From Chrysomallon squamiferum (Eukaryota; Animalia; Mollusca): 64,000 nt of DNA. The stretch lies in NCBI GenBank assembly GCA_012295275.1, contig CM022678.1, positions 2,666,001-2,730,000 on the forward strand, read 5' to 3'. Below the pieces are notes generated by a model that worked only from the letters and a program-made list of their open reading frames with translations, was not told where the DNA came from and made no database searches. Each line of letters starts with the position of its first letter. Position 1 is the first letter of the stretch. The translations under genes and the position numbers were made by a program. Below are positions 3,261 through 18,300 of this stretch, in pieces.

Positions 3261-3369
3261 TCATGCGAAGTACATGACGTTGGTTGTGTCGGGGTGGATG
3301 GCAACAGCTCGTGCAAGCGACGATGGTGCAGGTCGGTCCTCGCTGTTCTCCGAGTGGCTTCCTTCTCCA
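3261..3369 (-). CDS. AGO2: Argonaute alternative last exon 21b: (S)[35 protein letters not shown]
   Basis: 109 coding nt, phase-2 acceptor tttgcag|, ends MYFA-TGA. 21/35 aa identical to 21a. Confidence 0.92.
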
Positions 3370-6300
3370 CTGCAAAAACACGACAAACGTCAGCTTCATT
3401 TAGTTACACAAAAACAACATGATAATAGTTAAAAATTATAATGGTAACAATAATGTTAGTAACTGAACAGTAATAATAATAATAATAATAATAATAATAA
3501 AAAAAAATAATAATAATAATAAAAAAAAAATAATAAAATAATAATAATAATAATAATAATAATAATAATAATAATAATAATAATAATAATAATAATTATA
3601 ATAATAACTATAGTAATAATAATAATAGTAATGACAATAATCATCATAATGTTGATTATAAATAGTATTAATAACAATATAAAACTAAAACAATACAGAT
3701 AAAAAAAAAAAGTAAAAAAAATGAAAATTTTGTTCAATTACTTCTTTTCTTTCATTTTGAGTTCTATCACATTTAGAATTTTAGAATACTTTTTTTTTTT
3801 AAAATTTTTTACAATTTATGAGAGATAAATTTTGTAAATGTAAAATCCCAACAGAATTATTTAGAATACTGTTTCTTTCTTTTTTAAAACCATAATAATT
3901 CTTTTTTCAATAACTACACAATTTATAGTAAAAAAAAAAAAAGAAAAAAAAAAAATTTAAACCTTTTCCAAATACATCCGTCATTAAAGTCTACAGTATC
4001 CATTAAAACAAGAATTAATAATCAAAATAATCCACCATCACGAATTAGAAAAAACATTTCACTTTGAGCCTTAAAACACACATAAAAATAAACTTTTGGG
4101 AAAAAAGGAAAAAAAAAATAAAAAATAATAAAGAAGAAAATTTAAGAATAACAGCATCCAGTGAAACAATCAGACATAATTATGTAGGTCAGCAATCCAA
4201 TGTTTATGTCATCCAAACAAGTTTTTTTTATTCCATCCAACACAATCAATCAGTTATTCAAGTAACTACTGATATGTCCAAGAACTGCAAACTGGATATT
4301 AAAACTATGTGCAAAAACAGATTCTCCAAAAGAACGGAAAACAAAATGCACAATATCTGTCATTTCCAAGGAAAGAGGAATTTGTTGATCTGTTTATGTA
4401 TATATATATATATATATATAAAAACATGTGTATGCAAAATAAATGACATCTGTCATTTCCAAACAGAAATTTATCCTCTTTTAAAAAATACATGACACTG
4501 ATTGTATCCAAACAAACTGTAATTTGCAGATTTTGTTAAAGTGTCAAAGCAAAATACATCCATCATTTCCTAGGTAACTGCAATGAATGGATATGTTTTT
4601 TTGTTTTTTTTAGGTTGTTTTTTTTTTTATGAGTGTCTATGCAAAATACATCCATCAATTCGTAGGTAACTGCAATGAATGGATAACTGCAATGAATGGA
4701 TATGTTTGTTTTGTTCTGTTCTATGCAAAATACATGACATTGGTTGTATCCGAATGAACAGCAATAGCCCGAGCCATTGATGCCATCGTAGGGTCCTCCA
4801 TGCTGTCTGAATACCGGGATCCCTCCCCACTGCAAAACAGCAAAAAACAGCAGCATGAGTGAACCAGTGACCGGACTGCCTGTCAGCATGCGCACACTAA
4901 CGTTTAGCTACTAATGGAAAAAAATAACTGTGCATGTTTCATACATTACACGTTTTCCAAATTCAGAGAGGAAAAAATCTCTTCATATTCATGAAAGCCT
5001 CAACTTCAGTATTTTGGGTCCTGGTTTGCTCCTCACACATGCATTTCATGCAGGGTGCACACACAATTTTGTGTTTTGGGGTCACATGATACTAACACAT
5101 GATGTTTTTTGAAAATGAAAAAACAGACAATGGTTGCTTAAACCATTTGCAACTGAAAAGTTTAACAGAATATGAAGGTTACGTCATGCCGTGTCGTTCT
5201 GAAAACCAACGTCTTTGAGCCACTGGTATGCTGCAAGCAGGACTGGTGCAAAACAAAGTTGCCTTTTGTTTTGGTTACTCCAGAACAGGATAAACTGTTT
5301 ATGGAGTTGTTAACAACACCAAGGCAACACCCACGACTTGCCAAGAGTGGGCTGTCCACACATTATGTCATGTCAACAAGATAACCATATGAAACTGGTC
5401 CCAAACTTCCAGTTTAACAGCTCAAACCATTCCTGGATTAAGACAAAAGAGTGCCAGTTCTGTACTGAATCAGTTACAGAAACACAACAGACATACACTC
5501 ACTTTTACTTCCAAGTCTTAAGCTGGCACCTATGGTTCAGGCAACAAGACTGGTACAGTGTGCTGTTCACAAATGAGTCAGGGTTTCACCTGGACAACTC
5601 TGATGGTCACAGAGTCAAGGGAAACATTTTGTCATAACTTGCATTATTCAAACCAGACACCTGGAGGTAGAAGTGTGATGGTTTGGTGTCGTAACACATC
5701 TCACAGATGGGCCCAGTTTTTGAAATATTTGTCTTGTACATGCTACTGAGATCACATCATTTGACCTTACAACCTACCCTCTGCTCAAACACAGGAACAA
5801 AACATATCTTGTTACATCAGGCTAATGCCCACCCACATATAGCATGTGTTCTAACAGACATCTTACAACAATAGAAAACTGATGTTCTTCCCTGGCCATA
5901 TCTTTCTCTAAGCCTCTCTCCCAAACTGAACATGTCTGGGATGAATAGGAACATTTACTTTGTAAGCAGTAACACCTGCCTAGTTTGACTGAGATTTGGA
6001 ACTGTCTAGTTCTGTTTGTACAGCACTGATACCAAGCCTGTATCGACTCTAATGGTGCTGAGTTAGCTGTGAATTAACCTTTTGTACCTCCCCTCCTTTG
6101 GGCCATGGCATAGTGCCTAGCATTAACACGTAATAATTCTGAGTTTACATCTTCAACAAATAAACATTTGTGACAGATTACCAAACACTACCTTGTTATT
6201 TTCTAAACAAATAATATGTGCAGTTCTGTTCATGATGCACAGTTACTTTTTTCCGTTAGTGTTTATGCTGGAAATACCTTTATTTGAGAAAATAAATGTC

Positions 6301-15300: not shown

Positions 15301-18300
15301 ATGTACAGAACTGTTTTGAAAATTCTGTACATGCATCTTCATGAAGTATATGTAAAAAAAAAAAAAAAACAAACAAAAAAAAAAAAACAATTTGCCAACC
15401 TTGCCACCATACTGCAACTTCGGGGCAGGCAGTATGCGACCTTTCACCTCGGTCATGTCATACGAGACCATTATACCGAAGGTTTGCAGATACGGGTCAT
15501 TGTTGAAGTCAGCCTTTTGTACCTGGAGAGCAGTCACCAGAATTTGGCACTAATCTGACAGTTATCATGTACCTTGGGGGGAGCAGCGATTGTTAAACAC
15601 TTTGCGTACACCACTGTTATGCTATTGTCCAAGTTATTGCGTTTTAATTTGTTGGTTTAGTGAACATTTTATATAGTTTCAAATATTTTAAAATTCATTT
15701 ACAAAGTTAGTGAAAAATTTATTTAAAATTTCAAATGTTTTTATTTTGCAGTTTTGTCATTTCATTAATGATAGGTGGATTATTATAAAACATTTTTTAA
15801 TATGTATACATTATCAGGTTATATGCTGCCAACATGTAAAAGATTTCTCTGGCTCTCTTTTTTTGTTATAATTATTTTTAATGGTTTTTTCATACTTAGT
15901 GTGTACTTGATAGTATTTGTTTCAATCTATACCACTAATCCGAAAATTATTTTAAGTATTAAATTAATTTTTATTTCTGTTACGATCTCTCAAGATAAAA
16001 AGTTTACAAATAAATTTTTAAAATATTTTGAAATTCTAAAACAAATCTTTACTTTAAAAGATGAATAATCTTTTAATTCATTTGTAAAATATTTTTTAAA
16101 TTATTATTATTATATCTGCAGCTTCCCCCTCAGCATCAAACATTACCAGCCATGCCACATTCTCTGCACAATCTATCACCTGATAAGACAGGCTATTTGA
16201 TTGGTTAACCCAGAAGCCTCTCCTCCAATCACAATGCTCCAGGTACAGATGCTTACCGACAATTTCAAACTACTTGCATCACTCACAAAATTAATATTCT
16301 TGCAAAATTTGCAATGAAATAAAAATTACAAATATTTTGAGAAAAAAAATGTCTCAGGATATCTACACCATTATTTGAGTTTTCCCATTTACCAAAATAA
16401 TCAAAATATAAAAATTATTTTTTTGATCTTAAATCTCAAAAAATGGTGTAATCTTAACACATTTTTTTTGTCAGAAATTTTGTTTTTCATTTTAGAAAAA
16501 TAATGAAAATTTTCAAATACATTTGACCTAATTAAATTCTGCCCAAAAATATTTAAAAAAAAGGAAAAAAATAATAAATAAAAACATTATAAAAAAATTA
16601 AAATAAAATAAATAATAATAATAATAACAATAACAATAACAATAATAATAAAAAGAAAGTAAAGAAGAAAGAAAAAAAGAGGAAAATTAAAAAATATTCC
16701 TTAAATGTTTTTGTTTCTTTTAAGGCTTCTCTTTAATTAGGTCAATCAAATTCAACAGGGTTAAACAATGCATTTATTTAAATGGTTTCTAACCAGTTTT
16801 GAATAATTTTACAATCGTAATAGTTCCTCAAACACATTCTTATCATTAACAAATATAAACCGTAATAAATAAAATAATAATAATCATAAAATAAATAATG
16901 ATGATGGTAAGAATTGTTGTTTTTCAAAATTCCTATTCATTTACTATTCAAAAAAGTAAAAATAAAAACAAGTAAAGTAGATCCATTCCAAACAAAGTTT
17001 TTTTCAATAATAAATTTGAAATTTAACATTTTTGTAATTAACAAACATAAAACTGAAACAGTAGTATTATCACTTTTTTGGTTTCAAACTGAATAAAAAT
17101 AATACAGAATACAAATGCCATATATATATATATATATATATAAAAATAAATAAATTTATAAAAGGCACTATTTATGTAAATTATTTTGGCTGAAAGAGTT
17201 TGAGAAACAATTAAGTTTATTTTAAACCAATTCTAGTAATAAATAACAAACTTCTTTTCAGTTAAATTTCCAAGTAAAATTAAATAAACTGCAGCAAAGA
17301 ATTTCAATTTTTACGTTGTTTTTTTTTTAAAAATATTTGTATTTGTTGAACCCTGCATAATAATCGAGGGATGCAAGTTTTTTTTTTTTCAATCCCAGAA
17401 GCTGATGAATGAATTTCATGCGCTTGCAGTTCAGTGAAGCGACTGAATGCAAGATCTAACAAACACAATGTTTTAAACTTATGATTATGCAGAGACAAGC
17501 CCTTTCACTCTTTCATACAAGAATACAAAACATGTCACAAATTAAACATAAAATTTCTAAAAAATTTAAAAGTAAAAAATGATAATAAACATAGAAAAGG
17601 TCATCTTCTGGTAAATACATTAATTAGTACTTTTATTTTTAATTTTTAATTTTTTTATTGATTTTAAATATAAAATTGGCAATTAAAGATTAAGTAAAAA
17701 TTTTATTTTAATTTCAATGCCATTTTTTGTTACTGTTTTTCTATAGCAAACAAACCAGAAAATCACCTTTAATTATGTCAAAATCTTTTCATTTCAACAA
17801 AAGTGTTTTAAAAGTCTTTCTGTGATTTTAAGAATGAGAAATTTTAATGATTTCTTTTTTTTTTTCAATTTAGAGTCTGAATTAATGTTTTTTTTTCTCT
17901 CTTTAAGAAGTTACACATTGAGATAAAATTAAAAGAATAGTGTTTTTAATTTAAACAAAGAAAATCTCAACTTACTAAACTATTTATTTCCTTCTCCCTG
18001 TCTGGTGCTGATCGGGCAGTAGCCTGAAAAAAAATATAAATAAAAATAAATTACACGAACTGAAAAATTTTAATAGCACAGTTCATAGTATAACAGTAAA
18101 AACTAATATTTAAATTGGAATATTTTATTATCTGTATTAATAACTTTACAAAATTAAAAATAAACATAAATTTAATAAAACAGAAAAAGAAAATAAACAA
18201 TTAAACTGGAATATTTTAATAACTGTAATACTAATATAATGTTACAAAAAAATAATGATAATAATAAAATTAAGAAAAAAATAAATAACAGGAATATTTT

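Follow-up and report, generated by a model that had tools for sequence, protein, structure and literature searches.

Three pairs of duplicated exons in an Argonaute gene of Chrysomallon squamiferum, one of them predicted to exchange the catalytic aspartate

Adjacent homologous exons of equal length and phase serve as alternatives in the exon 4 pair of Drosophila serpent and in the Dscam clusters (PMC4691838). Among Argonautes, the vertebrate AGO1-4 family unites the slicer AGO2 with non-slicers (PMC4627090, PMC5507773) and has, at one site of the L2 linker, S387 in AGO2 and the acidic E390 in AGO3; the slug Deroceras laeve is a mollusc with a predicted slicer and a predicted non-slicer, AGO2a and AGO2b (PMC12506671); and shrimp Ago1A/B/C are microRNA-class isoforms with different PIWI regions and antiviral roles (PMC3510085). 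Here, we analyze a window of 64,000 nucleotides from Chrysomallon squamiferum (GCA_012295275.1, contig CM022678.1, positions 2,666,001 to 2,730,000), in which an Argonaute gene of the microRNA class on the minus strand contains three separate pairs of duplicated exons (13a/13b, 17a/17b and 21a/21b). It is probable, if only just, that one copy of each pair is spliced to give a main cutting Argonaute (with 17b) and a minor non-cutting one (with 17a).

The locus shares with serpent and Dscam the adjacency of homologous alternative exons, and a candidate helix between the introns that follow the first and last copy resembles the downstream-docking layout. It differs in having two copies per site and candidate pairing only, in a pair 17 whose exclusivity is explicable by reading frame, in one copy without the catalytic residue, and in a pair 21 that consists of last exons. 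With two copies at each of three sites it is not a large variant-exon array of the Dscam type, and the original prediction, made from the letters of the window alone, overstated the likeness in calling the locus Dscam-style. In contrast to vertebrate AGO1-4, the division in the snail is predicted from splicing of one gene, the residue lost is the first Asp of the catalytic tetrad, and there is no Ser at position 387; the slug has two genes where the snail has two exons of one gene; and the shrimp isoforms differ by the presence or absence of an 81-nt insertion rather than by a homologous exon swap, with no change of a catalytic residue reported in the text available. Automated RefSeq isoforms named 'protein argonaute-2-like' in molluscs already hold 13a/13b, 21a/21b and, in other species, 17a/17b, but the records describe neither the pairs nor the change at the catalytic residue. 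A prior description of the exon pairs or of the catalytic swap was not found in a literature search that covered sources other than subscription journals and supplements; the accessible portions of mollusc and lophotrochozoan RNA interference (RNAi) surveys and of the slug genome paper (PMC12506671) make no mention of them, and one survey kept the longest isoform only. Duplicated alternative exons are known as a kind; the notable feature here is an exon, shared across snails and bivalves, that likely turns slicing on or off.

The gene runs from an ATG at 33612 to a stop at 3261, with 22 coding exon positions that encode 896 residues, of which 890 are identical to Gigantopelta aegis XP_041360926.1 and six differ. 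All six Pfam domains (N, L1, PAZ, L2, MID and PIWI) are found on a 99%-identical relative (P0009), and exon 19 scores about 1e-40 against human AGO2 compared with 6e-07 against Siwi, far nearer AGO2 than PIWI proteins; judged in this way, the gene is closest to human AGO1-4, not to PIWI or small interfering RNA (siRNA) Argonautes. All seven exonic variants listed, three of them within 21b, are synonymous.

A profile was made for each of the 22 exon positions and searched over the six-frame translation of the window and over the reversed sequence. Second matches of 87.6, 48.3 and 67.1 bits were obtained for positions 13, 17 and 21, respectively, against at most 14.1 bits for the remaining 19 positions and at most 10.7 bits in the reversed-sequence control; exactly three positions are therefore duplicated. 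The prediction had counted three of 21 positions: the three stand and the total does not, so the pairs occupy the 14th, 18th and 22nd positions, and we retain the labels 13, 17 and 21. Its account of lengths, phases, open frames, splice sites and identities was borne out by the gene model. Pair 13 has 123 nt in each copy, phase 0-0 and 27/41 residues identical; pair 17 has 91 nt and 16/30; and pair 21 has 109 coding nt and 21/35. The duplicated pairs are adjacent homologous exons of equal length and phase with canonical splice sites, all six exons having AG acceptors and the four internal ones GT donors, and 8/8 exon combinations give an open 896-residue frame. Pair 21 comprises alternative last exons, both of which end in a stop codon of their own, rather than internal cassettes, and a single AATAAA lies between the copies at about 4232. 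Codons for shared residues differ between copies at 20/27 positions in pair 13, 10/16 in pair 17 and 13/22 in pair 21, so the copies are old and not alleles. The flanking introns, which had been described as dissimilar, are indeed no better than shuffles in 5/6 copy-versus-copy comparisons; the exception lies downstream of 13a/13b, where the similarity was matched by 6/300 shuffles. Repeat scans around the pairs returned low-complexity inverted repeats only.

The aligned human AGO2 residues are 383-423 for exon 13, 584-613 for exon 17 and after S824 to 859 for exon 21, confirming that the pairs map to regions considered regulatory or catalytic in AGO2; of the individual sites proposed, Y393 is present in both copies of exon 13, S387 in neither, and D597 in 17b only. 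A phospho-switch at S387 was rejected since 13a has Asp and 13b has Asn at that position; the site is absent from fly AGO1 too, and AGO3 has an acidic residue there (PMC5507773). The alignment of exon 17a with human AGO2 583-614 is gap-free and places Ser opposite D597. As D597 chelates Mg2+ (PMC10772731) and D597A is a standard non-slicer that nonetheless matures with guides (PMC4627090), the 17a forms are predicted to be non-cutting: the DEDH tetrad is complete in 17b isoforms (D634, E674, D706 and H844 of the window model) and incomplete in 17a isoforms, where the first position is Ser. Exon 17 also encodes the PIWI loop (602-608), which tunes seed strength in human AGO2 and is adjoined by the phospho-insertion, and a swap of which changed seed affinity about 75-fold (PMC10240194). 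The phospho-insertion is encoded by exon 21; the S824-S834 cluster governs target release (PMC12388510), and the Ser pattern of this region differs between 21a and 21b.

Loss of the aspartate recurs in molluscs. D597 is replaced in 12/15 mollusc 17a-like exons, compared with 0/13 17b-like exons and 1/83 other distinct Argonaute segments. The replacement is Ser in this window, abalone, four caenogastropods, Mya and Dreissena, and Asn in four oysters; as the species are related, the 12 losses may represent as few as three events. The 15 exons comprise 12 that represent the second version, either here or in a species for which two are modeled, and three single models (C. virginica, Mactra and Potamilus) assigned by likeness. 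Lys or Arg at position 606, a label independent of D597, is present in 15/15 17a-like and 0/13 17b-like exons and also in some annelid and flatworm single copies. Among all retrieved proteins, 531 matches to the motif have Asp, 22 have Ser and 11 have Asn, and the non-Asp matches are all mollusc isoforms except one. D597 is the most often altered of 21 near-invariant positions in 17a-like exons, and the sole one altered in oysters (4/4); its neighbors on the active-site strand (G595, T599, H600 and P601) are invariant in these exons, and the other three tetrad motifs are kept in 32/32 mollusc models without D597. Isoforms of one gene that differ only in the D597 exon are found in abalone, oyster, clam and amphioxus; the Branchiostoma floridae isoforms P0388 and P0391, which differ by six residues, have Asp in both versions. 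AlphaFold models of the abalone 17a isoform (n = 2; mean pLDDT 32.9 and 45.3) were too poor to use.

Exon trees, built from 30-41 columns and chosen taxa, separate the pairs by age. In every bootstrap tree for exon 13 (100% of 200), a single change separates the a-like from the b-like rows of snails and bivalves (n = 20 and 24, respectively); the split persists without the labeling column, and a duplication confined to the window is rejected (p-AU 0.014). On this tree, pair 13 predates the snail-bivalve split, which is Cambrian. Two versions of exon 13 also occur in Priapulus and in Lineus, and two of exon 17, both with Asp, in amphioxus. In the exon 21 tree, the two window copies group with each other (96/84) and the last-exon pairs of heterodont clams, Lineus and ticks fall elsewhere, which marks pair 21 as a lineage-specific duplication; the candidate explanation of an ancient pair 21 was rejected on this grouping. 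The 'ancient diversification' originally proposed thus holds for pair 13 and fails for pair 21, while the tree of pair 17 gave neither age. The three duplications are, as proposed, independent events. Among 80 metagenome loci, one true tandem copy was found, of the last exon (L051), the five other flagged doubles being one exon split by an intron. That tick- or mite-like transcript (L051:880-1165) carries two tandem last exons, and Ornithodoros P0264 and P0475 hold both last exons as isoforms, apparently an independent duplication of the same exon.

DNA and RNA reads were placed over window positions 2600-14600, with pair 13 outside this direct coverage. In each of two RNA runs of one study, a contig whose coordinates leave room for precisely one exon 17 (1203 nt to the end of exon 20) joins exons 16-17b and 17b-18; from depth and length, it runs on through 21b to about 40 nt past an AATAAA. 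Both contigs reach a single nucleotide beyond exon 14 on its 5' side, a weak hint of a branch with 13b on one side and 13a or unspliced RNA on the other. The listed RNA contig over 21a is unspliced and at intron-level depth, and no 21a joint is among the 15 of 33 RNA joints listed. Coverage gaps over 17a occur in DNA and RNA runs alike and are uninformative. In G. aegis, the annotated species nearest to this one, pairs 13 and 21 are modeled as alternatives: its seven models contain all four 13 × 21 combinations, with 13a and 21a always accompanied by 17b. Copies 17b and 21b appear in RNA contigs, 13a, 13b and 21a in G. aegis models, and 17a in models of other molluscs only, including 9/14 Littorina and 4/10 Saccostrea models among those listed. 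Up to eight isoforms had been predicted; all eight frames are open, and use of 17a was not seen in the RNA joints listed for this organism.

Frame arithmetic would enforce the choice at exon 17: inclusion of both copies or of neither shifts the frame and creates a premature stop, 708 or 556 nt upstream of the final junction. A stop that far upstream is a target of nonsense-mediated decay, which would thereby enforce exclusivity. Pair 21 is exclusive since each copy ends the protein, and pair 13 has no such frame lock, both or neither copy remaining in frame. Of five long-range pairing tests, one beat shuffles and four did no better. The one that did yields a candidate helix (-30.5 kcal/mol; reached by 0/60 region shuffles and 8/500 shuffles of 60-nt arms) in which the beginning of the intron following 17a would pair with that of the intron following 17b and mask the donor of 17b; it is absent from the global fold.

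Several observations weigh against a spliced, non-cutting 17a form. No 17a joint is among the RNA joints listed, 17a is in 0/7 G. aegis models, and no 17a-like model is among those listed for limpets, scallops, mussels, heterobranch snails and cephalopods. The branch leading to window 17a is very long (1.52 against a median of 0.058), and the exon is altered at six near-invariant positions. A single origin of 17a is neither shown nor rejected by the 30-column tree (p-AU 0.37), as is likewise true of a duplication confined to the window (p-AU 0.18). Asp is kept in three 17a-like exons (Mercenaria, Mactra and Potamilus), the evidence from other species consists of automated annotation models, and we infer slicing by the 17b form from its tetrad alone. 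In addition, 13a and 13b occur together in 8/9 Physella and 6/8 Priapulus models, so pair 13 may not be strictly exclusive. The long branch, the altered positions, the absence from G. aegis models and listed RNA joints, and the apparent loss in limpets, scallops and mussels among the models listed would all suit a 17a that is a decaying or near-unused leftover in this animal, leaving effectively four isoforms (13 × 21), each with the catalytic Asp. We consider this unlikely: the exon has kept its 91-nt length, open frame, AG acceptor and GTAAGT donor even though 10/16 shared-residue codons differ from 17b, it is identical to a modeled abalone exon at 19/30 residues, and absence from contigs, which drop rare variants, is weak evidence. 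Slightly less probable still is that 17a is used but retained for its PIWI loop or for transcript-level regulation, loss of Asp being tolerated drift because microRNA repression needs no slicing. The Lys/Arg at 606, found even in the three 17a-like exons with Asp, and the effect of the loop alone on targeting in human AGO2 (PMC10240194) speak for it; drift would not be expected to make D597 the preferred change, with at least two different substitutions, amid invariant neighbors.

The prediction had also suggested that exon choices are coupled, as two 'virtual paralogues' (a-a-a and b-b-b). The joint presence of 17b and 21b in the main RNA contigs fits this, but strict coupling is contradicted by 13a and 21a of G. 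aegis, which occur only with 17b, and by the four 13 × 17 combinations modeled in five genera (Haliotis, Littorina, Babylonia, Ostrea and Saccostrea; short-read models, not phased); since the pairs also differ in age and species range, we consider coupling very improbable. That the extra exons are an assembly artefact or a mis-joined second gene is largely refuted and barely credible: oysters do possess a second AGO gene, but here the shared-residue codons differ too often for alleles, the doubling is confined to single exons, the same pairs recur in other species in the same order (a Batillaria model, with exon 17 likewise a then b), and isoforms of a single G. aegis gene contain exons matching 13a, 13b, 21a and 21b.

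Under the favored reading of three separate pairs, splicing would pick one copy per pair, with nonsense-mediated decay removing transcripts that contain both or neither exon 17 and with competition between acceptors and poly(A) sites presumably deciding pair 21. By analogy with human AGO2, the 17a form would be unable to bind the catalytic Mg2+ and would still load guides and repress targets, and the altered PIWI loop (17a), together with the exchanges of L2 segment (13) and phospho-loop (21), may adjust how the protein binds targets and partners and how it releases targets. Exon choices are probably largely independent, which would give four common isoforms and up to eight. A wider proposal, which we hold tentatively and rate as possible rather than probable, is that this is a regulated splicing switch dating back to the snail-bivalve split, or perhaps even to the origin of bilaterians, a toggle between slicer and non-slicer combined with a seed-loop swap, in which selection removed Asp repeatedly from the same copy; with the L2 and phospho-loop pairs it would provide AGO1-4-like diversity in animals without a dedicated siRNA Argonaute.

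The coordinates of these features are collected in Table 1. Alternative versions at two further positions occur in bivalve AGO models (P0343/P0352, P0048/P0360/P0359, and scallop and mussel isoforms), namely of an N-domain exon in scallops, Mya, Mercenaria and Dreissena and of exon 14 in Mytilus, Mya and Mercenaria; the window is single at both. The second AGO gene of oysters (P0040 cluster) has a single exon 17 version with Asp kept. With regard to other exons of the gene, one G. aegis model omits exon 2 (39 nt; 29661-29699), two use an exon 9 lengthened by 15 nt at its 5' end (22821-22835), an extension whose acceptor lacks AG in the window, and copies of the exon 5 acceptor and first codons, repeated directly upstream of exon 5 (26545-26748), could be decoy acceptors. 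The 3' untranslated region of exon 21a includes two degenerate repeats of that exon's own 3' end (4436-4523). Broken frames at 5500-5950 (+) in the intron before 21a, where DNA depth is raised, resemble a Tc1/mariner transposase in their motifs; Pfam gave no match for 5314-5634. NMD3 (about 36361-44000, minus strand) lies head-to-tail upstream of the Argonaute gene, and the plus strand carries a Tim29 open frame (47650-48291) and macro-domain and RING/Deltex exons (53640-62669).

Table 1. Positions in the window of the Argonaute gene, its paired exons and candidate pairing arms.
Feature	Positions	Strand	Basis
Whole coding span of Argonaute gene	3261..33612	-	22-exon model, canonical splice sites
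Exon 13a: part of L2 linker (human AGO2 383-423), with Asp where AGO2 has S387 and with Y393 kept	15400..15522	-	same as G. aegis model exon
Exon 13b: Asn at S387 position, Tyr at Y393	14785..14907	-	in 4/7 G. aegis models
Constitutive exons 14, 15, 16 between pairs 13 and 17	11721..13169 (13036-13169, 12467-12651, 11721-11880)	-	gene model and RNA contigs
Exon 17a: human AGO2 584-613; Ser (AGC) for catalytic D597; altered PIWI loop; predicted non-slicing	10441..10531	-	sequence alignment
Candidate selector arm: beginning of intron following 17a, complementary to that of intron following 17b	10399..10440	-	pairing prediction
Exon 17b: catalytic Asp (GAT) retained; spliced to both neighbors	9609..9699	-	two RNA runs
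Candidate docking arm, including 17b donor site	9569..9608	-	pairing prediction
Constitutive exons 18, 19, 20, with E637, D669, H807 equivalents	7102..8479 (8285-8479, 7696-7932, 7102-7301)	-	gene model and RNA contigs
Exon 21a: proximal of the two alternative last exons, with the phospho-cluster loop (human AGO2 824-859)	4721..4829	-	in 3/7 G. aegis models
Exon 21b: distal of the two alternative last exons, followed by AATAAA at about 3077	3261..3369	-	in main RNA contigs

Molluscs are without a dedicated siRNA Argonaute (PMC11114477, PMC12479628), so both slicing and microRNA repression fall on their AGO gene family. RNAi surveys, in the parts accessible, merge isoforms or judge the tetrad from a single sequence, and an on/off choice at the level of an exon would thus be invisible to them. 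That the same exons have been duplicated repeatedly, in amphioxus, a priapulid, a nemertean and ticks, indicates which parts of Argonaute are tuned by evolution. If 17a is used, it would provide a natural catalytic-dead twin that differs within 30 residues, would make it testable why animal microRNA Argonautes retain the ability to slice, and could also account for tissue differences in the RNAi efficiency of farmed molluscs.

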